Part shown: piece after piece, positions 13,171-27,885 of the stretch
How positions within the stretch are numbered: position 1 is the first letter of the stretch
How the letters are laid out: every line of letters starts with the position of its first letter
Assembly: GCA_031409655.1 (NCBI GenBank)
Contig: JANNXQ010000107.1
Span: 64,001-128,000 of the forward strand
Length of the DNA: 64,000 nt
Source: Chthoniobacteraceae bacterium
GTDB lineage: Bacteria > Verrucomicrobiota > Verrucomicrobiia > Chthoniobacterales > Chthoniobacteraceae
Direction of reading: 5' to 3'
The notes under the pieces: model-generated
The model's database searches: none
What the model was told of the DNA's origin: nothing
The model's input: the letters and a program-made list of their open reading frames with translations, nothing else
Program-made: the position numbers and the translations under genes

Positions 13171-15396
13171 TTACTTCGCCGCCACCGTCGGCGCGACCGG
13201 CGAGAAGGTCTCGATGTAGCCGATCATCATCTCCTCATACGTCTGCTGCCCCCAGTGGACGGTCTTCGTCGGATCGGGGTTCGCCTTGTTCGCGGGGCTG
13301 TTGTCAAACACGGCCGTGACGCGCAGGGTGCTGCCGCGCGGAATGAAACGCGGCTCGGCGAGATCGTAGCGGATCTGCCAGTTGAAATCGTAACGCGGAA
13401 TATCGAGCAGCGTCTCAGCGGTGCCGTCGGCCTTCATCAACTCGTATTTGAAGGCTTTCCCGCGCACATGCATGTGCGCGACAAAGGCCATCACGTTGAG
13501 GTCGATCGGCACTTTCCGCGACGCGGTCTCCACGTGGTCCGCGGCTCCCGGTGGAATGTTCAGATCGCGATCCGGCAGCGCGACGGTCTCGACCAGATAA
13601 CGTGGCGTCTCTTTCGCGAAGATCAGGCCCATGCGCAATTGGTCCTGAGTCGCCTTGCCACTCGGGGTGTAATGAATCTGAAAGCTCACCCTGCTCCCTG
13701 CGGGCAGCTTGCGCGCAAAGCCCGAGGGATAGACCTGCGAGCCATTCCCCGGGACATACGCCGCCCAATAACCACCAAGGCCTTCCTCCCGGTCGCGCAC
13801 CTTACCGGTGCCTTTCGCGTGTACGTTCACGATGACGTGATGCACCACACTGCGATCCGTCGGGAGGATCTCGTAACCTTGCACCCATTTATCTTCAGTC
13901 AGTGTCGTCTCCGCGGTGATGAATTGATAAGGCATATACCCCTCCGCCTTCACCGCGATGGGTCGCGGTAGTTGCACAATGTAATCCGGCTTCCCGATCG
14001 TCCACTCTTCTGGAAAGACGAGCTTCGCGGGGGCCTCGGCGGGATTTCCCAGCGGACGATCCGCCGACCCGATCCACGCGAGCAGGTCCGCCTTGTCGCG
14101 TTCGGCAAGAGAGCAGTCATTCGCCCAGGGGTTCGGCGAGCCCGCCTTCACCGGCGCGGCAAACCACGGCGGCATCGTCCGCTCCGAGACCACGCGTTCG
14201 ATGACCTTCGCGCGATCCTTCACTTCCGCGAGGTCATCAAGAGGGAAAGGCGCGATGCCCTGGTCGCGATGGCACGTCACGCAATTCAGCTGCAAGATCC
14301 GCGCGACATCGCGGTGATACGTCACCTCAGTCGTCGCGCGATTTCCCGCCTCCGGAATGTCCAGTTCACAGCCCGGAGCTTCGGTCGCGACGATCGCGGG
14401 CCGCTGGCTCGCGAGCATCGCGGTGACCGCGTCGCGGAGATACTTCGTGCGCGGAGCGTCGAGGTTGTAATTCACGCCATACTGATCATCGAGCGCACCG
14501 CGGTAGAGCAGCGTGCGCGTCGCATCGAGGAGGAAAACCTCCGTCGTCGTGCGAGCACCGAGCGCAGTGGCGAGCTTCTTTTCCTGGTCACGCACATAAG
14601 GTGCCGCAAGCCCGGCCGCCATGAGTTGCGCCTGGATGTCCTCCCGGCGATCGCTCGCATAGGGATTCACGAGCAAAAGCCCCACGCCCTGCACCCGCAG
14701 ATCCTTCTCCAGCGTCGCCAGCGAAGGCGCATAGCGTTTACTCACCGGGCACGTCGCACTCGTCATCGCGATCACCAATCCATTTTTCCCCGCGACCTCG
14801 CTCAGCTTCCGCGGCGCGCCCTGCAGATCCACAAAGTTCAGCTCCTCGATCATCCGGCCCACGCCGACATCTCCGCCTTTCAAGATCCGCGGCCCACTCG
14901 TCACCGGCTGCGCCACCGCAGGCGCCGTGCTGGCGGGAGTCGTCGGCAATTCGCCACCGAGTCGGCTGTACCTTTCCAGTGCCTCCGATGCCTCAGCACG
15001 CGTGATGCGGCCATCACCGTCACCGTCCACCGCGAGCAGTCGCCGGGCCTTTCCGGGCAGTTCATCGGCCGTCAGCGCGCCATCGCCATTTGTGTCCAGA
15101 TATTTGAAAAGTTGTTCTCCCGTTTGCTTTCCGGAGTCCGACTCCGCCGGCGAGACCGCGCCGGCCACCAACCCACGCGTCGTCTCCTCGAGCGTGATCA
15201 CTCCGTCCTTGTCCCGATCAAATCGCGCGAAGGTCGCCGCGTCCGGCAATTCGTCAGGAGTCACCTTGCCGTCGCTGTTTTTATCAAAGCGCTTAAAGAC
15301 CGCACCCACCCCGCCCAGCCCCTGGGCATTTGCAACATGGGAGGCCGCGAGGGCGGCAACGACGAGGAGTGGCAATTTCAGGCGTGGAAAGTTCAT
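13171..15396 (-). CDS. Secreted EF-hand + redoxin + c-type heme + Cu type II monooxygenase-like fusion
   Basis: Signal peptide; EF loops DKNSDGKV, DRDKDGVI, DTNGDGAL, DGDGDGRI; TCPVS redoxin with YRGALDDQ; CVTCH; VHH, HMH, EEMM. Confidence 0.8.
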   Translation of the reverse strand: MNFPRLKLPLLVVAALAASHVANAQGLGGVGAVFKRFDKNSDGKVTPDELPDAATFARFDRDKDGVITLEETTRGLVAGAVSPAESDSGKQTGEQLFKYLDTNGDGALTADELPGKARRLLAVDGDGDGRITRAEASEALERYSRLGGELPTTPASTAPAVAQPVTSGPRILKGGDVGVGRMIEELNFVDLQGAPRKLSEVAGKNGLVIAMTSATCPVSKRYAPSLATLEKDLRVQGVGLLLVNPYASDRREDIQAQLMAAGLAAPYVRDQEKKLATALGARTTTEVFLLDATRTLLYRGALDDQYGVNYNLDAPRTKYLRDAVTAMLASQRPAIVATEAPGCELDIPEAGNRATTEVTYHRDVARILQLNCVTCHRDQGIAPFPLDDLAEVKDRAKVIERVVSERTMPPWFAAPVKAGSPNPWANDCSLAERDKADLLAWIGSADRPLGNPAEAPAKLVFPEEWTIGKPDYIVQLPRPIAVKAEGYMPYQFITAETTLTEDKWVQGYEILPTDRSVVHHVIVNVHAKGTGKVRDREEGLGGYWAAYVPGNGSQVYPSGFARKLPAGSRVSFQIHYTPSGKATQDQLRMGLIFAKETPRYLVETVALPDRDLNIPPGAADHVETASRKVPIDLNVMAFVAHMHVRGKAFKYELMKADGTAETLLDIPRYDFNWQIRYDLAEPRFIPRGSTLRVTAVFDNSPANKANPDPTKTVHWGQQTYEEMMIGYIETFSPVAPTVAAK

Positions 15397-15497
15397 CGGG
15401 TACTTGAACGCCGGTCACGGCCAACGGTTACGCGCAACGAGTATTTAATTCCAACCCGCCAGCCTTGGACCCAATCCGCAGCGGCCAAGCTCCCCTC

Positions 15498-16415
15498 TCA
15501 TTTTCGCGCCTTTTGACCCGCTCGCTGGGTCAGCGCCACAATGGCTGGGTGGGTGAGACGGCGCTCGGCGGTGATTGCGAAAAACTGGGTCACGATCGCA
15601 GGCGTCCGCCCGAGGGAGACGAAACCATACCGCTCGATGGCTTCCGCGGCGACGGCGGTGGGAATCACCACGAACCCCAAGCCATCCGTGCCCGCGATCT
15701 TGGCCAGCGCATGATCTTCAAACTCGCCCACCACGCGGGGCTCGATCGCCACGCTCCGGAACCATCGCTCAAGGTCCCGCCGGAGACTGCAATTTTGCGT
15801 GGGGAGCAGCCCCGGGGCTTCGTGAAGATTGCGGGGAAACCTTCCCTTCAGCGTCCGCGCGAGGCCCGGCATCGCGCAAAAGGTGATGTCGCTGCTGCTC
15901 AGCAAATGGTTGAAGACCTTGCCGCTCTGGCTCGGGGAAGCAGGCTCGTCGGAGAGCACGACATCGACCCGGTGCGTGGTGAGTTGGGCCAAAAGTTCCG
16001 CCAGCTTGCCCTCATGACAGGTGAGGTGGATGGGTGGGTCGTGCTCAAAGATCGGCCGCAGGATGTCGAAGCTCATCAGTTTCGGAAACGAATCGACGAT
16101 GCCCGCGTGCAGCCGCAGTGAACGCGCCGTGGGCGCCTGCTTCGCCGCGCGCAGCACTTCGCCCCCGAGGGTGAAGATCTCCTCCGCGTAGCCGAAAATG
16201 ATCTGCCCAAACTCGGTGAGCACCGACGACCGGCCACTCGGGCGGAAGAGATCTTCGCCGAGCGCCGTCTCGAGGAGCTGGATCTGGGTGCAAATGGACG
16301 GCTGCGAGACGTGCAACCTCTCCGCCGCGCGGCGGAGGCTGCCTTCTTTCGCCACCGTCCAAAAGTACCGCAGGTGGTGGTAGTTGAGAAATTCGGGAGC
16401 GGGCGAGTGTTCCAT
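15498..16415 (-). CDS. LysR regulator, NhaR-like
   Basis: FLNYHHLRYFWTVAKEGS..AAERLHVSQPS and ERRLTHPA tail resemble NhaR. Confidence 0.85.
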   Translation of the reverse strand: MEHSPAPEFLNYHHLRYFWTVAKEGSLRRAAERLHVSQPSICTQIQLLETALGEDLFRPSGRSSVLTEFGQIIFGYAEEIFTLGGEVLRAAKQAPTARSLRLHAGIVDSFPKLMSFDILRPIFEHDPPIHLTCHEGKLAELLAQLTTHRVDVVLSDEPASPSQSGKVFNHLLSSSDITFCAMPGLARTLKGRFPRNLHEAPGLLPTQNCSLRRDLERWFRSVAIEPRVVGEFEDHALAKIAGTDGLGFVVIPTAVAAEAIERYGFVSLGRTPAIVTQFFAITAERRLTHPAIVALTQRAGQKARK

Positions 16416-16498
16416 TTAGCAGAAGTGTTCGTGAGTGAGTTCGTCATATTCAAACCACGGGAGTCTGTCGAGATTGGCGCCCTTCCAAAATCCATCCG

Positions 16499-16852
16499 AT
16501 GAAACTCGTCCTCAAACATCTCCATCACACGCCCTCCGCCTCCCTCAATGCCTTGATCGACAAGCATCTGGAAGAATTCGGGAAATCGCTGCAGATCGAA
16601 GAAGCACGAGTCGTGGTCGAGCGCCGCCTCAACGCGAGTCCCGCCTTTCACGTCAGCGTGCATTTCGTCACACCCGGCCCGGATGTCTTCGCGGAGGCGA
16701 TGGACCACACCCTGCGCGCCGCGCTGCAAAAGACGGTCGAGAAACTCGAGACCTCCATCGGTCACCGGCACGACAAGCAAAAGCGGCCTCCTCGCGCCTC
16801 TCTCAAGAGCGCGCCAACGGCCCGGATCACATCCGCTGCAACTCGCCGCTGA
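16499..16852 (+). CDS. HPF/RaiA (S30AE)-like ribosome-associated protein
   Basis: Size and beta-alpha pattern, FHVSVHFVTPGPDVFAE..DHTLRAA. Confidence 0.65.
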   Translation: MKLVLKHLHHTPSASLNALIDKHLEEFGKSLQIEEARVVVERRLNASPAFHVSVHFVTPGPDVFAEAMDHTLRAALQKTVEKLETSIGHRHDKQKRPPRASLKSAPTARITSAATRR

Positions 16853-16885
16853 TCGCGAATACTCACCCACACTTCACCCATCTTC

Positions 16886-17848
16886 ATGACTAATACCCTC
16901 TGGCTCTGGATCGGCTTCAATGTCTTCGTCCTCCTCATGCTCGCGCTCGACCTTGGCGTCTTCCATCGGAAGGCGCATGTGGTCTCCTTTCGCGAAGCCA
17001 TCGCCTGGACGATCGCCTGGGTCACCCTGGCCATGCTCTTTAATATCGGCATTTGGTATTATGCCGGAGCGCAGAAGGCCCTGGAATTCACCACTGGCTA
17101 CGTCATCGAATACTCGCTCAGCGTGGATAACATCTTCGTCTTCGCGATGCTGTTTTCGTATTTCGCGGTGCCGCCGCTCTATCAGCACCGGGTGCTCTTC
17201 TGGGGCATCCTCGGCGCGCTGGTCCTGCGGGCTCTGATGATCGTCGCGGGCACCGTGTTGATCACGAAGTTTGCGTGGATCATCTATGTCTTCGGCGCGT
17301 TTCTGATCATCACCGGCATCAAAATGATCGTTAAGCGCGAGGAGGAGATTCACCCCGAGCGCAACCCGGTGGTGCGCTGGTTTAAGAAACTCATGCCGGT
17401 GACCAGCGACTATCGCGGCGATAAGTTCTTTGTGCGCGAAAACGGCGTGCGCATGGCCACGCCGCTCTTCGTGGTGCTCTTGCTGGTGGAAGTCTCCGAC
17501 GTGATTTTCGCGGTCGATTCCATCCCGGCGATCTTCGCGGTCACCAAGGATCCATTCATCGTCTATACGTCGAATGTCTTCGCCATCCTCGGTCTGCGCT
17601 CGCTGTATTTCGCGCTGGCGGGAGTGTTGGACAAATTCCACTACCTCAAGATCGGTCTCGGTGTCGTGCTGACCTTTGTCGGCGTGAAGATGCTGCTCGG
17701 GCACACCGCTTACAAGATCGACACGCTCGTCTCGCTCGGCGTGATCGTCGGCGTGCTTGCCGCGTCGATTATCGTGTCGCTCATGCGGCCGAAGAAAGCG
17801 GAGCTGCAGCTCGGCCACGCTCCAGATGTGACCCCTCCGCAACCCTGA
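16886..17848 (+). CDS. terC: TerC/Alx membrane protein, copy 1
   Basis: LALDLGVFHRK, EYSLSVDN, DVIFAVDSIPAI, TSNVFAILGLRSLYF. Confidence 0.9.
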   Translation: MTNTLWLWIGFNVFVLLMLALDLGVFHRKAHVVSFREAIAWTIAWVTLAMLFNIGIWYYAGAQKALEFTTGYVIEYSLSVDNIFVFAMLFSYFAVPPLYQHRVLFWGILGALVLRALMIVAGTVLITKFAWIIYVFGAFLIITGIKMIVKREEEIHPERNPVVRWFKKLMPVTSDYRGDKFFVRENGVRMATPLFVVLLLVEVSDVIFAVDSIPAIFAVTKDPFIVYTSNVFAILGLRSLYFALAGVLDKFHYLKIGLGVVLTFVGVKMLLGHTAYKIDTLVSLGVIVGVLAASIIVSLMRPKKAELQLGHAPDVTPPQP

Positions 17849-17937
17849 TGCGCATTGCCCTCGCCGTCCGCGCGCTATTTTAAAGCACCGCAGATCGCGG
17901 CCAACTTAGCCATACTTCCACACTCCCATCGTAACTA

Positions 17938-18900
17938 ATGACTAATAACCTCTGGCTCTGGATCGGCTTCAACGTCTTCGTCCTCCTCATGCTCGCGCTC
18001 GACCTTGGCGTTTTCCATCGGAAGGCACACGTCGTGACTTTCAAGGAGTCGATGGCGTGGACCGTCGTCTGGGTCACGCTCGCGCTGATCTTCAACCTCG
18101 TTGTGTGGCACTACATGGGGCCGCAGAAGGGGCTCGAGTTCTTCACCGGCTACGTCATCGAGAAGTCGCTCAGCGTGGATAACGTCTTCGTCTTCGCGCT
18201 CCTCTTTACCTACTTCGCGGTGCCGGCGCTTTATCAGCACAAGGTGCTCTTCTGGGGGATCCTCGGCGCGCTGATCATGCGGGCGATCATGATCTTCCTC
18301 GGGGCGGCTCTGATCGAACGCTTCACCTGGATCATCTACATCTTCGGCGCGTTCCTCATTCTCACGGGCATCAAGATGATCGTGAAGCGCGAGGAAGAGA
18401 TTCATCCCGAGCGCAACCCGCTGGTCCGCTGGTTTAAGAAGCTGATGCCGGTGACGAACGACTATCGCGGCGACAAGTTCTTCGTGCGGGAAAACGGCGT
18501 CCGCATGGCCACCCCGCTCTTTATCGTGCTGCTGCTCGTCGAGTTCTCCGACCTGATTTTTGCGGTCGATTCGATCCCCGCGATCTTCGCGGTCACCAAG
18601 GATCCGTTCATCGTCTATACGTCGAACGTCTTCGCCATCCTCGGCCTGCGCTCGCTCTATTTCGCCCTCGCCGGAGTGATGGACAAATTCCACTACCTCA
18701 AGATCGGCCTGGGTGTCGTGCTCACCTTCGTCGGCGTGAAGATGCTGCTCGGGCACACGCCTTACAAGATCGACACCCTGGTCTCGCTCGGCGTCATCGT
18801 CACCGTGCTCGCCGCCTCGATCGTCGTGTCGCTGCTGCGACCCAAGAAAGCAGTCATGAAAATCGGCCACGCTCCGGGGACGACCCCTGAGCAACCCTGA
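17938..18900 (+). CDS. terC: TerC/Alx membrane protein, copy 2
   Basis: Same motifs with EKSLSVDN; 320 aa like copy 1. Confidence 0.9.
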   Translation: MTNNLWLWIGFNVFVLLMLALDLGVFHRKAHVVTFKESMAWTVVWVTLALIFNLVVWHYMGPQKGLEFFTGYVIEKSLSVDNVFVFALLFTYFAVPALYQHKVLFWGILGALIMRAIMIFLGAALIERFTWIIYIFGAFLILTGIKMIVKREEEIHPERNPLVRWFKKLMPVTNDYRGDKFFVRENGVRMATPLFIVLLLVEFSDLIFAVDSIPAIFAVTKDPFIVYTSNVFAILGLRSLYFALAGVMDKFHYLKIGLGVVLTFVGVKMLLGHTPYKIDTLVSLGVIVTVLAASIVVSLLRPKKAVMKIGHAPGTTPEQP

Positions 18901-20237
18901 TGAGCATCGTCCTCGTCGAGATTCTCATTGTGCTTGCGCTGTTCATTGCCAATGGGGTTTTCGCCATGAGCGAGATGGCCGTCGTGTCGTCGCGAAAGTC
19001 GCGGCTCAAGCAGATGGCTGCGGACGGCAACGCCGGTGCGACTGCCGCGCTCCGTCTGGCAGAGGCCCCGAATCGTTTCCTGCCCACCGTGCAAATTGGC
19101 ATCACGCTGATCGGCCTGCTGGCCGGTGCCTTCAGCGGCGCCACGCTGGCGGGCGAGTTGGCCGCGAGGCTGAAACCGCTGCCTGGCTTCGCGCCGTTTG
19201 CCGATGCGGTCAGCGTGGGGCTCGTCGTGGTCGCGCTTGGGTTCCTGTCGGTCATCATCGGCGAACTCGCGCCAAAGCGCATCGCGCTGGCGGCCCCGGA
19301 GAAGATTGCCAGCCGGCTCTCGCGACCGATCGAGTTAATTAGTCGCCTCGCCCAGCCAGTTGTCGAACTGTTGAGCGGCGCAACCGGCCTCCTGCTCCGC
19401 ATGTTACGGATCAAGCCTAGCCAGCCGGACGGCGTTTCCGAAGACGAAGTGCGGCTGCTTTTGCATGAAGGCCGGGAAAGTGGCGTCTTTCTTAGGGAAG
19501 AGCCGCGCATGGTCGAGTCCGTGCTCTCGTTTGACCGTCGTCCGGTCCGGGAAATCATGACGCCGCGGCCCAAGCTTGTCTTTGTAAGCCTGGCCGATAC
19601 GCAGGAAACGCTGTGGCATAAGATCGTCGTGTCCGGTCATTCGAGTTACCCGGTCTGTGCGGAGGATCGCGATCATATCGTCGGCGTGGTCACGGTGAAA
19701 TCCGTCTATGCCAACCTCGCGGCTGGCACCCCCGTTCGCGTGATCGACCTCCTGACCAATCCGCTCTTCGTCACGCCAGACGAGCCGGTGCTGGATGTCC
19801 TGAACCATTTCAAGCGCACCGGCGTGCATCTCGCCGTGGTCCGTGAAGCCGACGGTCGCTCGGTCGGACTCGTTACGCTCGTGGATGTGCTCGAAGCCAT
19901 CGTCGGCGACATTCCCTCTCTTGAAGATCGGCTGCGGCCCGAAGCCCGGCAGCGCCCGGATGGCTCCTGGTTGGTCGATGGCCAATACCTTCTCGAGAAA
20001 CTCGCCGCCCTGCTCGGCGTCGCCTTCGCATCGCCGACCTCCGATGCGGGCGCCACGCTTGCCTCGTTTGTCGGCGATCAACTTGCCAGCCATCCCCGCG
20101 AGGGCGATTGCTTCGACTGCGCCGGCCTGCATTTTGAGATCATCGATATGGACCGCACCTCCGTGGACAAGGTCCTGATCCACGCCACACCTGCGGCAGT
20201 AGCGCCTCGGACCACGGAAACCTCGGTCGCCGAATGA
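18900..20237 (+). CDS. CNNM/DUF21-CBS-CorC (HlyC/CorB-type) transporter
   Basis: NGVFAMSEMAVVS, TVQIGIT, GELAPK, CBS pair (IMTPR, LEAIVGDI), CorC tail. Confidence 0.9.
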   Translation: MSIVLVEILIVLALFIANGVFAMSEMAVVSSRKSRLKQMAADGNAGATAALRLAEAPNRFLPTVQIGITLIGLLAGAFSGATLAGELAARLKPLPGFAPFADAVSVGLVVVALGFLSVIIGELAPKRIALAAPEKIASRLSRPIELISRLAQPVVELLSGATGLLLRMLRIKPSQPDGVSEDEVRLLLHEGRESGVFLREEPRMVESVLSFDRRPVREIMTPRPKLVFVSLADTQETLWHKIVVSGHSSYPVCAEDRDHIVGVVTVKSVYANLAAGTPVRVIDLLTNPLFVTPDEPVLDVLNHFKRTGVHLAVVREADGRSVGLVTLVDVLEAIVGDIPSLEDRLRPEARQRPDGSWLVDGQYLLEKLAALLGVAFASPTSDAGATLASFVGDQLASHPREGDCFDCAGLHFEIIDMDRTSVDKVLIHATPAAVAPRTTETSVAE

Positions 20238-21070
20238 CGCACCTTGCACAGCGCCTCGTCGCTTCCAGGTCGTTCCGCGCATTAATCATCGCGGTGATCC
20301 TCCTCGCTGGCGTGCTCGCGGGCGTGGAAACCAGCGCCGCCATGCTCGCGCAATACGGCCCGCTCCTGCACGCGCTCGACTTGGCGGTGCTCACCATCTT
20401 CATCATCGAGATCGTGTTGAAGCTCACCGCCTGCGGCCGCCGGCCGCTCGACTACTTCCGCGATGGCTGGAACGTCTTCGACTTCACCATCGTCGCGCTC
20501 TGCATCCTGCCCGTCGGCGGACCGTTCGCCGCGGTGCTGCGCCTCGTCCGCACGCTCCGCTTGCTCCGGCTCGTCACCGCGCTGCCGAAGCTGCAGCTCC
20601 TCGTCGGCGCACTCATCAAGAGCCTGAGTTCCATGGGTTACGTCGGACTGCTCCTCGGGCTGATTTTCTACATCTATGCCGTCACCGGGGTTCACTTATT
20701 CGGGAAGGCATCCCCCGAGTATTTTGGAAGCCTCACCGCCGCCCTGCTCGCGCTCTTCCAGATGATCACCCTCGATGACTGGAGGACCATGTATGACAGC
20801 GCGCAAGCCGCCGCGCCCTTCGCCGCCACCCCTTACTTCGTCAGCTTCATCCTGCTCGGCACGATGATCATGCTGAATCTCTTCATCGGCATCGTTATGA
20901 ACTCCATGGCCGAGATGCACACCGAACTCGACGAATTGAAGGAGGCCGCCCGAGCCACTACGGAAAAGGGCAGCGTTCTCAGCGACGTGACCGCGCTCGA
21001 CCAGCAGCTCGCCGCGTTGCGCTCCCAACTCGATGCGCTCCGGGCGAAGCTTTCGCAACCTTCCTCATGA
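20234..21070 (+). CDS. Bacterial voltage-gated cation channel (BacNav/Cav family)
   Basis: YFRDGWNVFDF, S4 RLVRTLRLLR, pore TLDDWRT, S6 LNLFIGIV, C-terminal coiled coil. Confidence 0.9.
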   Translation: MTHLAQRLVASRSFRALIIAVILLAGVLAGVETSAAMLAQYGPLLHALDLAVLTIFIIEIVLKLTACGRRPLDYFRDGWNVFDFTIVALCILPVGGPFAAVLRLVRTLRLLRLVTALPKLQLLVGALIKSLSSMGYVGLLLGLIFYIYAVTGVHLFGKASPEYFGSLTAALLALFQMITLDDWRTMYDSAQAAAPFAATPYFVSFILLGTMIMLNLFIGIVMNSMAEMHTELDELKEAARATTEKGSVLSDVTALDQQLAALRSQLDALRAKLSQPSS

Positions 21071-21312
21071 AAACCAAACACTGGCTTCTCGCGCTGTGGG
21101 TGCTGATCGTCTTCGCGCTCCATCAGGATGTGTGGAACTGGACCAAGTCCAGCCCGCTCCTCTTCGGCTTGCTGCCTCCGGGGCTGACTTACCACTTAGG
21201 TTACTCTGTGCTGGCCGCTTTCACCATGGCGCTGCTCGTGCGCTTTGCCTGGCCCACGCATCTCGAAGATGAAGCGCCCAACGACCAACAGCCTCCCGCG
21301 ACGAAGCCATGA
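21067..21312 (+). CDS. DUF3311-like small membrane partner of sodium:solute symporter
   Basis: Two TMs, LHQDVWNW, GLLPPGLTYH; coupled to symporter gene. Confidence 0.75.
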   Translation: MKTKHWLLALWVLIVFALHQDVWNWTKSSPLLFGLLPPGLTYHLGYSVLAAFTMALLVRFAWPTHLEDEAPNDQQPPATKP

Positions 21313-22880
21313 TCCCCGCGATCGTCGTCTTCATCTATCTCGCGATCATCCTCTACGTGGGGATGTTTGCCTTCCGCAAGAGCACCGGCTCGAAGGAGGA
21401 TTTCTTCCTCGCGAGCCGGTCGCTCGGGCCGTGGGTTTTTCTGCTCACGGTCTTCGGCACAAACATGACGGCCTTCGCCATCCTCGGCAGCTCGGGCCTC
21501 GCATATCAGCGCGGCATCGGCGTTTACGGGCTCATGGCTTCGTCGTCCGGGCTGATTATTCCGCTCACCATTTTCCTCATCGGCACGCGGCTGTGGTCGC
21601 TCGGGAAAAAGCATGGCTATATGACGCAGGTGCAGTATTTCCGCGACCGCTGGGAGTGCGATGCCATCGGCACGCTCATCTTCGCCGTTACCGCGCTGAT
21701 GATGATCCCGTATGTCGTCATCGGCATGATGGGCGGCGGCCACACGCTCGATAGTCTCAGCGATGGATGGGTGCCCTACTGGCTTGGCGGCGCGATCGTC
21801 GCGGTTGTGGTGATGCTCTACGTTTTCTTTGGCGGCATGCGGGGCGTGGCGTGGGTGAATGCGCTCCAAACCGTGCTCTTCCTGTGCTTCGGCGCGATCG
21901 CCTTCTACCTCATCTCGCGCAACCTCGGCGGCTACGACCGGATCATGGCCGAGATCGCCGCGAACCCGAAGGACTCCACGCTGCTCACCCGCGCGCGCAT
22001 CTCGCCGCAGGAGTTCTTCAGCTACACCTTCATCCCGCTCTCCGCGATGATGTTTCCACACATGGCTATCATGTGCATGACGGCGGAAAAGGTGACGTCC
22101 TTCAAGCGCACGGTCATCTGGTATCCCATCTGCATCCTGCTCATCTGGCTGCCCAGCGTGTATCTCGGCGTCATCGCCGCGCATCAGTTCCCCGGCCTCA
22201 AGCTCGGCGAATCCGACGACGTCATCCTGCGCCTGCTCAGCGACAACACCGATGTCGTCGTAGCCGGCATTCTCGGCGCGGCGATCATGGCCTGCGTCAT
22301 GGCGACCGATTCGCAGATCATGGCGCTGAGCACCATGTTTAGTCAGGATGTCTTCGCGCACTACGGCGGCGCGAAGAAATACGGCGAGAACGTGCAGGTC
22401 TGGATGGGTCGCGCGTTTGTCATCGTCATCGCCATCGTCAGCTACGCCCTCGCGCTCGCGCTGGAGGGACAGAAATCCATCTTCGATCTCGCCATCCGCT
22501 TCGGCTTCTCCGGCTTCGCTGCACTCGCACCGGTGATGCTCGCCGCGCTCTTCTGGCGGCGGAGTAATAAATGGGGCGCCCTCGCCGCCGTGCTCTGGGT
22601 CGTCTCCTCCATGACCCTGCTCTGGTGGCTGCAACTCCACTCCAACGGTCTCGCACCCAAACCCGGCCAGCCGCCCGTGCCCATCTTCGCCGAACTCGGC
22701 AGCCTCTTCCTCCGCACGCCGATGAACGTGACCATCTTCGGCTACATGCCCGTGATGTTCATGTGCCTCGGCTCCGCGTTCTGGATGGCGCTCGTGAGCC
22801 TGCTCACACCCGCTCCTTCACGACCCACGATCGAGAAATTTTTCCCATCATCCAAACCCAAGCTTCTTCCCGCCGCATGA
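21309..22880 (+). CDS. Sodium:solute symporter
   Basis: DFFLASRSLG, GGMRGVAWVNALQ, about 13 TMs. Confidence 0.9.
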   Translation: MIPAIVVFIYLAIILYVGMFAFRKSTGSKEDFFLASRSLGPWVFLLTVFGTNMTAFAILGSSGLAYQRGIGVYGLMASSSGLIIPLTIFLIGTRLWSLGKKHGYMTQVQYFRDRWECDAIGTLIFAVTALMMIPYVVIGMMGGGHTLDSLSDGWVPYWLGGAIVAVVVMLYVFFGGMRGVAWVNALQTVLFLCFGAIAFYLISRNLGGYDRIMAEIAANPKDSTLLTRARISPQEFFSYTFIPLSAMMFPHMAIMCMTAEKVTSFKRTVIWYPICILLIWLPSVYLGVIAAHQFPGLKLGESDDVILRLLSDNTDVVVAGILGAAIMACVMATDSQIMALSTMFSQDVFAHYGGAKKYGENVQVWMGRAFVIVIAIVSYALALALEGQKSIFDLAIRFGFSGFAALAPVMLAALFWRRSNKWGALAAVLWVVSSMTLLWWLQLHSNGLAPKPGQPPVPIFAELGSLFLRTPMNVTIFGYMPVMFMCLGSAFWMALVSLLTPAPSRPTIEKFFPSSKPKLLPAA

Positions 22881-22957
22881 ATGGAGCGCCGCGAGTGCGG
22901 GCACCGTTTTCAAGTGCGCGAGCAAAAGTTCGTCGAGTGAGTGGTCGAGCATGGCGT

Positions 22958-23373
22958 TTAGTCCTCCGGCTCGACGACGAGCACGATCATCGGGAATTGC
23001 GGGTGGTCGGTGACTCGCGTGATGCGGTAGGTCACGCCCTGGAACGCCAGCGTTTCGCCGAGCTTGGGCCGATCCGCACCAAGCTCAGAGCGCAGCACCT
23101 TCATCGTGCAATCACCGTTGCCAGCGACTCGCCCACCCGCCCACCTCCCTATTCCCTTCCTCCTCCTCGGCCTTCCGGCGCGGCCCTTCGGGCTGCCTGC
23201 GGCAGGCTGTCTCGCTCCGCTCGGCTCGCATCGAATCCACCAAGGCCGAGGTCTTGGCTCAGCGGGTTATCGGACACGAGCGCGTGAAGCGTTCGCCCCT
23301 TCCAAACAATTTCCTCGCCAATGGCGGCGAGAACCTCGGCGAGCGCGGCGGCTTTTTCATCGTGAAGACTCAT
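22958..23373 (-). pseudogene. Disrupted phage head-tail joining-like gene
   Basis: MSLHDEK...GGFDA then ~110 nt of repeat DNA with a stop; another frame resumes GDCTMKVLRS...GETLAFQGVTYRITRV...VVEPED*. Confidence 0.55.
23121..23171 (-). repeat. ~52-nt purine-rich element, copy A
   Basis: 42/51 identical to 26491-26541 by manual alignment. Confidence 0.8.
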
Positions 23374-23432
23374 GCCGCTGCGCGGCTGTCAAAGGCTCCG
23401 TTTTCTGATCGCGGCGATTCGCCGCCTCCGCG

Positions 23433-24350
23433 CTATCGATTGAAGACTGGAATGGAATACGCGCGTGAAGACGTGCGGTATTCGCGGGGAGCGCTGCCGA
23501 TGTGCCGAGTGAAGCAGGCGGTGAGGTGGCTGTGGCTGGAAAAGCCGCAGTCGAGCGCGATGGTGGTGATGTCCTTTTGCGTGCTGATCAACTGGTGTTG
23601 TGCGCGACGCAGGCGCTGACGAATGATGTATTGGGCGGGCGTGCTGCCGAACGCTTTGCGGAAGGCGACGAGAATCTGGTGCGTGGTGAGGGCCGCGAGC
23701 GCCGCGAGTTCGGCCAGCGTGACGCGTCCGTCGAGACGGGCGTCGATGTGATCCCGCAGCAGGCGGATCGTGCGCGCATCGAGGCTGGGGCCACGTTCCC
23801 GTTTGCGATCCGCAACGAGTCCGTCGGGAGCAAGCGACCGCAGCAAGTGGAGGCCGATGCTTTGGCTGAGCGACTCGGCAAGCATCGCGGAGACATCGTC
23901 GCTCGAATGCGTGGCTGCGAGGAGTGCGCGCACGGCGTGGTGCAGGAAGTCATCCCGCACGCCGGCCACGGGCGCGATGTCCTGCCGCCCGTTCGTGGAG
24001 CCGCGCACGAGGTCACCCGCATCGGGTCGAAGGCGAAGCACCGCATATTCGATGGCCTGGCCGCACGCGTGGCTCGCATACCTGCGCCCGGCGGGAACCG
24101 TCCAGATTTCCCCCGGCAGGGCCGGACCGTTGCTGCCCCCGAATCCGTCGAGTTCCGTTTCGAGACGGTCCATGTGCCCGCTGAGATGGATGACGATGGA
24201 ATGCACAGGCTCGCAGATGCGCCAATCTGTAGGCCGACGAATGTCGTCGCCGCGGTGAATGACCTCGAGGCCGGGGAAACGCGTTTGCGTTTCCTCCAGC
24301 ACGACGGCGGCGGCACCATCGCCGATGCGGGTAGCGGGCTTGCGAGGCAT
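23433..24350 (-). CDS. AraC family regulator
   Basis: C-terminal HTH IALDCGFSSHSHLTACF; start chosen at ATG 24350. Confidence 0.9.
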   Translation of the reverse strand: MPRKPATRIGDGAAAVVLEETQTRFPGLEVIHRGDDIRRPTDWRICEPVHSIVIHLSGHMDRLETELDGFGGSNGPALPGEIWTVPAGRRYASHACGQAIEYAVLRLRPDAGDLVRGSTNGRQDIAPVAGVRDDFLHHAVRALLAATHSSDDVSAMLAESLSQSIGLHLLRSLAPDGLVADRKRERGPSLDARTIRLLRDHIDARLDGRVTLAELAALAALTTHQILVAFRKAFGSTPAQYIIRQRLRRAQHQLISTQKDITTIALDCGFSSHSHLTACFTRHIGSAPREYRTSSRAYSIPVFNR

Positions 24351-25517: not shown

Positions 25518-26105
25518 ATGGAAAAAGGACGACTCGAAGCCTTCAGCGATGGCGTCATCGCAATCATCATCACGATCATGGTGCTGGAGATGAAAGTGCC
25601 GCACGGCGCGGACTGGGCCACGCTCCAGCCGCTGCTGCCCGTCTTTCTCTGTTATGTGCTGAGCTTTCTCTACGTCGGCATCTATTGGAACAATCACCAC
25701 CATCTCCTGAAGGTCTGCCGCCGCGTGACCGGCGGAATCATGTGGGCCAACCTGCACCTGCTGTTCTGGCTCTCGCTCTTTCCATTTGTCACCGGCTGGA
25801 TGGGTGAAAATCACTTCGCCGCCAGCCCGACCGCCCTCTACGGCGCGGCGCTCTTCTGCGCCGCCATCGCTTACTACATTCTGCAGAGGCTCATCCTCAT
25901 TCACCACGGCAATAAGTCGCGGCTGGCTGAGGCGATTGGCTGCGACTGGAAAGGCAAGCTCTCCCCCGTGCTTTATCTTGCCGGTATCGGCCTGTCGTTT
26001 TGGCAGCCTGTCCTGGCGGGCGCGATTTATGTTCTCGTCGCGCTGATGTGGCTCGTGCCGGATCGCCGAATTGAACGCGCAATCGAAGGTGGCGATGAAG
26101 GATGA
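25518..26105 (+). CDS. TMEM175/DUF1211 K+ channel-like protein
   Basis: RLEAFSDGVIAIIITIMVLE signature, YWNNHH. Confidence 0.9.
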   Translation: MEKGRLEAFSDGVIAIIITIMVLEMKVPHGADWATLQPLLPVFLCYVLSFLYVGIYWNNHHHLLKVCRRVTGGIMWANLHLLFWLSLFPFVTGWMGENHFAASPTALYGAALFCAAIAYYILQRLILIHHGNKSRLAEAIGCDWKGKLSPVLYLAGIGLSFWQPVLAGAIYVLVALMWLVPDRRIERAIEGGDEG

Positions 26106-26961: not shown

Positions 26962-27885
26962 ATGAATACACTGACCACGACCGAAACCGAAGCCATCCTC
27001 ACCCTTTGCCTCATCGCGTCCTTCGCCGATGGCGACAAACACGAACGCGAACGCCAGCAACTCAAGAAGATCACCGACTCGCTCGCCGGCGGGGAGGTGG
27101 ACATCACCGCGCTCTATCAGCAAGTGCTGCTGAACAATCCCGACGTCGCCGCAGTCGCCGCGCGCCTGCTCACTCCCGGTGCCCGCCAGCTCGCCTACGA
27201 GATGGCCGTGTGCGTGTGCGATGCGGATGAAGTGTGCAACCCCGCCGAACAGCAATTCCTCGATGAACTGCGCACCGCGCTCGCCCTGCCCACCGCCAGC
27301 ACGCAACCGGTGGACGCCGAAGCCACCGCGCTCGCCACCATTCCCGTGGCCTCACCCGCGCCCGCGCAATCCGAGGAAACCGACGCCATGATCCTGCGCT
27401 ACGCCATCGTCGGCGGCGCTCTGGAGCTACTCCCGCAGACCCTGGCCACGCTCGCCATCGTGCCCATGCAGACCAAGATGGTCTATCGCATCGGCAGCCA
27501 GCGCGGCGTCGAACTCGACCGCAAATCCATCGTCGAGTTCATGGCCACGGTCGGCATCGGCATGGCCTCGCAAGTCTTCGAAGGCTTCGCGCGGCGGCTC
27601 ACCAAAGGACTTGGCAAAGCCGTCGCCGGCAAAATGGGCGGCAAGATCGGCGACGCCGTCGGTGGCATCGCCATGTCCTTCGGCGCCACCTACGCGCTCG
27701 GGCAACTGGCGAAACTCTACTACGACAGCGGCCGCAGCCTGAGCATGGAGACGCTCAAAGCCAAATACCCGCCGCTCCTCGCCGAAGGAAAAACGCTCGC
27801 GCAAAAATACACCACGCAGATCACCGAGCAGAGCCAGCGGCTCCAGGGGGCCGGCCTCAGCACGCTGTTGAAGAAGGTGATCTAA
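26962..27885 (+). CDS. TerB-like N-domain plus YcjF/DUF697-like C-domain protein
   Basis: ASFADG...AYEMAVCVCDAD...EQQFLDELR TerB pattern; Gly-rich C-terminal helices with ATYALG. Confidence 0.7.
   Translation: MNTLTTTETEAILTLCLIASFADGDKHERERQQLKKITDSLAGGEVDITALYQQVLLNNPDVAAVAARLLTPGARQLAYEMAVCVCDADEVCNPAEQQFLDELRTALALPTASTQPVDAEATALATIPVASPAPAQSEETDAMILRYAIVGGALELLPQTLATLAIVPMQTKMVYRIGSQRGVELDRKSIVEFMATVGIGMASQVFEGFARRLTKGLGKAVAGKMGGKIGDAVGGIAMSFGATYALGQLAKLYYDSGRSLSMETLKAKYPPLLAEGKTLAQKYTTQITEQSQRLQGAGLSTLLKKVI

Follow-up and report, generated by a model that had tools for sequence, protein, structure and literature searches.

Described channels with acidic selectivity filters

The values given here for described channels come from excerpts of the cited papers. 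CavMr from Meiothermus ruber is the first native bacterial Ca2+ channel, and a 2026 paper names it as the sole prokaryotic Ca2+ channel identified (PMC12919392). Its filter, TLEGWVD, combines Glu3 with Gly4, the key determinant of Ca2+ selectivity, and Val6; the G4D change lowered PCa/PNa from 218 to 7.7, the filter of NavPp placed in CavMr gave 13.8, and CavMr without Asp7 was still Ca2+-selective (144), so that loss of Asp7 need not matter (PMC7041947). According to the same source, NavPp from Plesiocystis pacifica (TLEDWTD) has a PCa/PNa of 0.31 with block by Ca2+, was not turned Ca2+-selective by CavAb-like filters, and did not pass its Na+ selectivity on to CavMr. All Asp4 filters measured in the ancestor-like backbone gave PCa/PNa values of 0.3–14, with K+ permeating about as well as Na+ in three of four (PMC7041947, Table 1).

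Double aspartates are known from the engineered Ca2+ filters TLDDWSD and TLDDWAD (PMC8677417), and in NaChBac the filter LEDWAS gave a PCa/PNa of 35 and LDDWAD one of 133 (PMC2229573). Under a 'beacon' rule, Asp4 brings Ca2+ selectivity or else Ca2+ block (PMC10120453). With Asp3 alone, NsvBa from Bacillus alcalophilus (TLDSWGS) is non-selective; equipped with TLDDWADG it reached a PCa/PNa of only about 30 and still passed K+ and Rb+, and Glu3 was required for the Na+ selectivity of both NsvBa and NaChBac (PMC4225499). In NavAb, S178G brought no Ca2+ selectivity, and M181A, which puts a small uncharged side chain at position 7, abolished selectivity but left an approximately 10-fold Ca2+ preference (PMC12919392). 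OsEukCatA1 (TLDAWAD) is described as non-selective between Na+ and Ca2+. CatSper is a heterotetramer, and CatSper3 and CatSper4 have Gly at position 4. The filter letters of CatSper1 are TLDDW. On these data, the backbone counts as much as the filter letters.

In the accessible text of the literature searched, no native TLDDW or other double-Asp channel was found, and the double Asp appears there only as an engineered construct; figures, logos and FASTA supplements may hold some. Searches on TFDDW, TLDNW, LDDW[ARKT], AnclNav/CavMr and post-2020 Ca2+-selective BacNav homologues returned no native double-Asp channel, and the literature yielded no measured channel with Asp3 and Asp4 in the ancestor-like backbone, nor one with Arg6. 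The channel described below belongs to a known family, within which its natural filter is an apparently uncharacterised variant.

The channel gene, its filter and its ancestry

In the window, that is, the whole 64,000-nucleotide stretch of DNA analysed, an intact ORF at 20234..21070 (+) encodes P0001, a 278-aa single-domain voltage-gated cation channel of the BacNav superfamily. Pfam Ion_trans (PF00520) covers residues 12–230 (E 7e-45). The AlphaFold2 model (mean pLDDT 83.5) has six long helices, with a P1 helix (167–178) and a P2 helix (183–193) on either side of TLDDWRT, and its closest solved folds by Foldseek are NavMs, CavAb (5klb, third in the list, 33%) and NavAb, at 31–40% identity. 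All three analyses agree on the six-helix plan with a P1-filter-P2 re-entrant loop, and CavMr is likewise a single-domain six-helix prokaryotic channel. S4 (20540..20569, +) has an arginine at every third residue (R103, R106, R109 and R112), matched by counter-charges in S2 and S3; the partner residues in S1–S3 are E32, D49, F56, E59 and D83, and no variation was seen at R103, R106, R109, F56, E59 or D83 among 86 aligned homologues. By analogy with BacNavs, a C-terminal helix of the model with a heptad-like pattern (approximately residues 250–274; 20981..21055, +) is probably a tetramerising coiled coil. The genome holds a single channel gene of this type (tblastn), and P0001, judged by its family, would form a homotetramer with a voltage-gated current. 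The GC content of the gene (63%) equals that of the genome, and the NCBI names of close homologues fall in Chthoniobacteraceae and Verrucomicrobiota, which makes a host from this group probable. The selectivity filter, T179-L-D181-D182-W-R184-T185 (positions 1–7; 20768..20788, +), stands in the sequence QMITLDDWRTMY, and the translation agrees with the sequence-only reading in both the TLDDW filter and the intact four-Arg S4.

In a set of 121 sequences, made up of the query plus its 120 best homologues, 88 have the filter TLDDW, 31 have TLDNW, and TLDAW and TLGDW occur once each, while Glu at position 3 occurs in none; because the motif is shared in this way, it is not a product of chance or sequencing error. 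The most frequent full filters are TLDDWRT (45), TLDDWKF (27) and TLDNWSD (24), and TLDNWRT, TLDDWRE and TLGDWRN occur as single intermediates in homologues. A survey of TLDDW frequency, proposed as a check in the sequence-only reading, showed that T[LF]DDW recurs in at least 89 channels from five phyla and not in one clade. The GTDB scan with the pattern L-F-[QRH]-x-x-T-[LF]-D-D-W matched at least 119 stretches, a lower bound without a denominator, and among the matches listed, 89 of 119 are channel homologues (54 TLDDW and 35 TFDDW). By record label, these 89 belong to Pseudomonadota (39, including 35 Alphaproteobacteria), Verrucomicrobiota (28), Chloroflexota (10, Dehalococcoidia), Bacillota (6) and Myxococcota (2), and four are without assignment. 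Within the host phylum, 30 of 401 genomes have a homologue, and the filters of 30 loci from those genomes are ESW (12), EDW (10), EGW (3), DNW (2), ENW (1) and DDW (2, one being the query). The DDW filter is therefore uncommon but recurrent, since it occupies 2/30 loci of the phylum, yet occurs in many lineages of GTDB. None of the 30 pattern matches in an IMG/VR viral survey encodes a channel, and a 50%-cluster search returned mostly four-domain eukaryotic channels, with about seven single-domain matches among 150. In one metatranscriptome, 0.09 of the words were present; its contigs were short, mostly less than 95% identical, and uninformative on channel expression.

These surveys also brought up several other channels. 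TLDDWTD filters occur in Alcanivorax-labelled and Gammaproteobacteria MAGs (L074, L053), TLDDWSN in Thioalkalivibrio sp. HK1 (L155) and TLDDWAN in a Roseomonas sp. (L145), all one residue away from engineered filters; L074 and the TLDDWAN group lie in the NavAb-like branch. A Myxococcota-labelled assembly of 1.4 Mb contains an approximately 526-aa two-repeat channel (L069/L210) with 2 x 6 helices and the filters TFDDWAA and TLDDWAA, possibly a prokaryotic two-domain channel or else a mis-binned eukaryotic contig. In genome G014 (L168), tandem paralogues with TLDDWRN and TLDDWRT have a CNNM gene between them and could form heterotetramers, and in genome G457 a TLEDWTD channel coexists with a TLDDWVV channel (L206 and L211). 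The unbroken four-Arg S4 pattern was seen in none of the Dehalococcoidia DDW channels. A Gemmataceae-labelled protein of 471 aa (P0130) has an apparently duplicated voltage-sensor domain followed by a single TLEDWTD pore, and two Bacilli channels (L224, L228), placed on different branches within the TLESWAS channels, have TLDSW filters like that of NsvBa.

The ancestry of P0001 was examined in two trees. Tree 1, a quick LG+G4 search with the filter columns removed, used the 91 representatives left after thinning 366 sequences at 65% identity; it resolves three groups, one with TLESWSM filters, one of Bacilli with TLESWAS and a large one with TLEGW/TLEDWTD, which match the three BacNav groups described in the excerpted PMC7041947, and the query lies within the TLEGW/TLEDWTD branch (54 rows, SH-aLRT 95). 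In tree 2, which contains 108 of 168 locus-derived rows, it falls in a 22-row clade of mostly TLD[N/D]W filters (support 98), joined by TLEGW[AV][DE] rows (97). In both trees the query is separate from the channels with TLESWSM and those with TLESWAS, and P0001 has neither this branching nor the TLESW filter with Glu3 of the canonical Na+-selective BacNavs. We infer that P0001 belongs to the ancestor-like BacNav (AnclNav) branch, a label that rests on proxies with the same filter motifs because neither tree contained CavMr or NavPp. The phylogeny called for in the sequence-only reading thus places the query with TLEGW/TLEDWTD sequences, in trees with no CavMr, NavPp or CatSper rows, and gives it no backbone kinship with CavAb/CaChBac.

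Elsewhere in the trees, Alphaproteobacteria have double-Asp filters in the NavAb-like group and Paenibacillus has them in the Bacilli group, and those of Dehalococcoidia stand next to TLEDWTD rows. A single origin of these filters was rejected, as a tree constrained to unite the 18 double-Asp rows is worse by 369 log-likelihood units (AU p 1e-48). Parsimony needs nine changes, and the number of origins is approximate because several double-Asp rows are long branches.

The CavMr filter type TLEGWVD is carried by the sister rows of P0001 in tree 2 (CavMr itself being outside the tree), but CavMr depends on Gly4, whereas the query has Asp3, Asp4, Arg6 and Thr7. NavPp shares the natural Asp4 and, by proxy sequences, the same broad branch; it differs in Glu3, Thr6 and Asp7. 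CavAb and CaChBac are identical to the query at positions 1–5, including Asp3 and Asp4, and have the same fold, but they carry a third acidic ring at Asp7, where the query has Thr185, and a small uncharged residue 6, where it has Arg, and they were built in NavAb and Bacillus backbones, neither of which is that of the query. The P2 region of the query is one residue shorter than that of NaChBac in the HMMER alignment. NsvBa shares the natural Asp3 and is linked to pH homeostasis under alkaline conditions, a role that is also proposed below for P0001, with Bacillus channels supplying cation/proton antiporters at high pH (PMC4225499); it differs in its Bacillus group, Ser4 and GxG motif. CatSper1 was absent from the 60 best PDB sequence matches to the query.

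Over positions 1–7, the net charge per subunit is -1 in the query and NavAb, -2 in CavMr, and -3 in CavAb and NavPp. Among 230 clade sequences, 108/115 with Asp4 have Arg/Lys6 together with a non-acidic position 7 (non-acidic position 7 overall, 112/115), whereas position 7 is acidic (Asp/Glu) in 114/115 sequences without Asp4. The net charge of positions 1–7 is -1 in 108/115 Asp4 and -2 in 110/114 Asn4 sequences. Position 10, which in P0001 is D188 of the P2 helix (20795..20797, +), is acidic in 76/115 Asp4 versus 7/114 Asn4 sequences, and over ten positions this acid returns 72/115 Asp4 sequences to net -2. Because Asp4 accompanies Arg/Lys6 and the loss of Asp7, the query clade has relocated negative charge in its filter and has not added any. 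The clade tree shows approximately eight changes at position 4 between TLDDW and TLDNW; because the sequences are kin, few independent events underlie the covariation, and only three independent pairs lie on well-supported branches (sign test p 0.5, not significant and underpowered).

So many swaps within the same cassette, together with the single intermediates TLDNWRT, TLDDWRE and TLGDWRN, would also be expected if selectivity were relaxed, with nearly neutral filter variants, a voltage- or pH-gated leak and a TLDDW/TLDNW difference without physiological meaning. Constraint is suggested instead by the near-invariant Asp3 and by how closely positions 4, 6 and 7 vary together, and we consider this explanation quite improbable.

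The best explanation, to which we give a probability of about 45%, is that P0001 is a Ca2+-permeable, weakly selective homotetrameric voltage-gated channel of the ancestor-like branch, with a PCa/PNa of approximately 1–30 and poor Na+/K+/Cs+ discrimination. It starts from what is established for P0001, namely an intact gene, a complete voltage sensor, the filter sequence, the tree position, the filter covariation and the conserved cassette. The short Asp181 ring would abolish Na+ selectivity, and the Asp182 ring would draw divalent ions, counteracted by Arg184 and the lost position-7 acid, which would leave a net -1 per subunit. In favour of weak selectivity are the low PCa/PNa values of Asp4 filters in the ancestor-like backbone, the behaviour of NsvBa and OsEukCatA1, and that of NavAb M181A. 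Several observations count against it: the values of 35 for Asp4 alone and 133 for LDDWAD in NaChBac (excerpt of PMC2229573), the 'beacon' rule (PMC10120453), the Ca2+ selectivity that CavMr kept without Asp7 (PMC7041947), and the position-10 acid that restores net -2 in most Asp4 sequences.

A divalent-selective channel had been proposed by analogy with the TLDDWSD filter of engineered CavAb and the TLDDW motif of CatSper1, with the caveat that Arg-Thr in place of Ser-Asp could lower Ca2+ selectivity. The excerpts confirm both the CavAb filter (PMC8677417) and the Asp residues at positions 3 and 4 of CatSper1 (PMC10120453), the caveat is probably right, and Ca2+ permeability is likely in a filter that is natural and conserved. 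The analogies themselves carry less far. CavAb is no predictor, because the query groups with TLEGW/TLEDWTD channels, where Asp4 lowered Ca2+ selectivity in CavMr and NavPp stands at 0.31 (PMC7041947), and the CatSper analogy is weak, since CatSper1 belongs to a eukaryotic heterotetramer with Gly4 in other subunits, whereas the query genome has one such channel gene.

The conserved gene cassette

P0001 lies in a same-strand run of genes for an HPF/RaiA-like ribosome-associated protein (16499..16852, +; PF02482), two TerC/Alx-family membrane proteins that are 84% identical (16886..17848, +, and 17938..18900, +; TIGR03718, 450 and 457 bits, cut-off 246), a CNNM/CBS/CorC-HlyC protein (18900..20237, +; profile match) whose stop overlaps the channel start, the channel, a DUF3311-like small membrane protein (21067..21312, +; PF11755, 24 bits, below the cut-off) that overlaps the channel stop, and a sodium:solute symporter (SSF; 21309..22880, +; profile match) found in close relatives only. 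Stop/start overlaps run from the second TerC gene onward. A TerB-like/DUF533 gene (26962..27885, +; profile match) is 4 kb off here and within the cassette in relatives. Divergent from the run is a NhaR-like LysR regulator (15498..16415, -), whose score for NF008284 (NhaR, 190 bits; next family 84 bits) lies below the cut-off of 219, which counts against NhaR-like regulation. Between the LysR and HPF genes lies an imperfect inverted repeat of the TTCG-N7-C[AG]AA type (16440..16454), which fits T-N11-A and is a candidate LysR operator; it recurs when the window is aligned with 17 intergenic stretches from related loci, one genome contributing two of these. Neither a yybP-ykoY riboswitch nor any other credible Rfam match was found in 14000–24000, where two weak matches were far below threshold. 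Two further genes nearby were seen beside no relative: a TMEM175-family K+ channel gene (25518–26105, +) approximately 4.5 kb downstream, and a gene adjoining that of LysR (13171–15396, -) for a protein of 741 aa that combines EF-hands and a redoxin domain with a copper-monooxygenase-like C-terminus and which, being absent beside relatives, gives no support for a Ca2+ link.

Neighbours were counted wherever 3 kb or more of upstream sequence was present, after removal of one duplicate stretch and with profiles made from the clade's own neighbours; many of the loci counted are closely related to each other, and such profiles may miss distant TerC subfamilies. TerC lies within 5.5 kb at 21/22 clade DDW loci, 11/11 DNW loci (one a fragment) and 4/5 TLEGWT[DE] loci, which form a separate branch, but at 0/32 DDW loci of other lineages, 0/11 other EGW, 0/6 ESW and 0/18 EDW loci with enough flank (the NavPp-type TLEDWTD). 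The 22 clade DDW loci further have HPF (17), LysR (14), TerB-like (10), CNNM (6), SbtA (4) and SSF (2) genes, and the 11 DNW loci have SbtA (6/11) and CNNM (4/11). The symporter, at 2/22 loci, was rejected as a core partner. Other neighbours in relatives encode a SbtB-like P-II protein, PurK/PurE (L071, L095, L170, L288), carbonic anhydrase (L270), Mrp/NuoL-type subunits (L170) and a cation P-type ATPase (L170, L079). The cassette also occurs without a channel, since a nhaR/raiA/terC set lacking one is annotated on a Pseudomonas plasmid; the set is absent beside a Burkholderia homologue (two of ten matches opened). A literature search on the cassette found nothing relevant.

Bicarbonate is used by PurK and SbtA, and NhaR responds to Na+. 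With its NhaR-like LysR, HPF, TerC, SbtA, PurK and similar neighbours, the cassette suggests a locus for ion and bicarbonate homeostasis at alkaline pH and low CO2, and not a specifically Ca2+-related one. Alx of E. coli exports Mn at alkaline pH, as the excerpt of PMC10197570 has it.

The Na+-coupled SSF, SbtA and the NhaR-like regulator among these neighbours could also serve a Na+-preferring channel like NavPp, with a low-affinity external Ca2+ block at the Asp4 ring and Na+ delivered to a cycle of Mrp, SbtA and SSF. Of the natural Asp4 channels only NavPp has been measured, and it prefers Na+ (PCa/PNa 0.31, PMC7041947); the net filter charge of the query also equals that of NavAb. Such a preference is nevertheless doubtful, as Na+ selectivity needed Glu3 in NsvBa and NaChBac (PMC4225499), where the query clade has Asp3, and that of NavPp was not transferable to CavMr (PMC7041947).

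TerC is also the most constant neighbour, and the sequence-only reading took the position after TerC and CNNM genes as consistent with a divalent-selective channel. The genes directly upstream are indeed two of TerC/Alx type and one of CNNM type. TerC adjacency was rejected as a sign of the double-Asp filter, since the TLDNW sisters share it and the DDW channels of other lineages lack it. The same counts bear on the proposal that P0001 is a strongly Ca2+-selective, or a divalent, Mn/Mg-passing, native channel, in which two Asp rings would act as in CavAb, Arg184 would point outward, Asp188 would serve as the outer acid, and metals would be exported by TerC/CNNM. For this proposal, Asp3 and Asp4 equal the engineered Ca2+ filters, Asp188 is frequent among Asp4 sequences, double-Asp filters arise repeatedly across lineages, and the sister clade has CavMr-type TLEGW[AV][DE] filters (SH 97), which makes a Ca2+-preferring ancestry plausible. 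Against it, the high Ca2+ selectivity of CavMr was lost with Asp4, NavPp was unmoved by CavAb-like filters (PMC7041947), and filters fail to transfer across backbones (PMC7041947, PMC12919392; excerpts), so that strong selectivity seems unlikely.

If P0001 is instead Ca2+-permeable and weakly selective, as we prefer, it would be co-expressed with TerC/Alx and CNNM under the NhaR-like LysR, and in relatives the co-expressed set would add SbtA/SbtB, PurK/PurE, carbonic anhydrase, Mrp-type subunits and a cation P-type ATPase. The channel would then act as a cation re-entry route in alkaline, low-CO2 stress, with TerC and CNNM taking the divalent load.

Meaning for the channel family

Sequence alone does not make P0001 a native Ca2+ channel, and it would not be the first in bacteria because of CavMr. 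It is rather unlikely that P0001 represents a second, mechanistically distinct native prokaryotic Ca2+/divalent channel type with double Asp rings. The engineered solution would then have been reached repeatedly (in Verrucomicrobiota, Alphaproteobacteria, Paenibacillus, Dehalococcoidia and Gammaproteobacteria), and would here form, with TerC/Alx and CNNM exporters, a voltage/pH-controlled module of divalent influx and efflux. As a natural CavAb, the TLDDWTD, TLDDWSN and TLDDWAN channels outside the clade (L074, L155 and L145) are better candidates than P0001.

Overall, T[LF]DDW filters occur naturally in each of the three BacNav backbones, so that filter charge and backbone can be tested directly against each other as the source of Ca2+ selectivity, and pairs of TLDNWSD and TLDDWRT channels at 70–80% identity can separate the roles of positions 4, 6 and 7. 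The NhaR-like/HPF/TerC cassette, in turn, gives the ancestor-like channels a testable physiological role.
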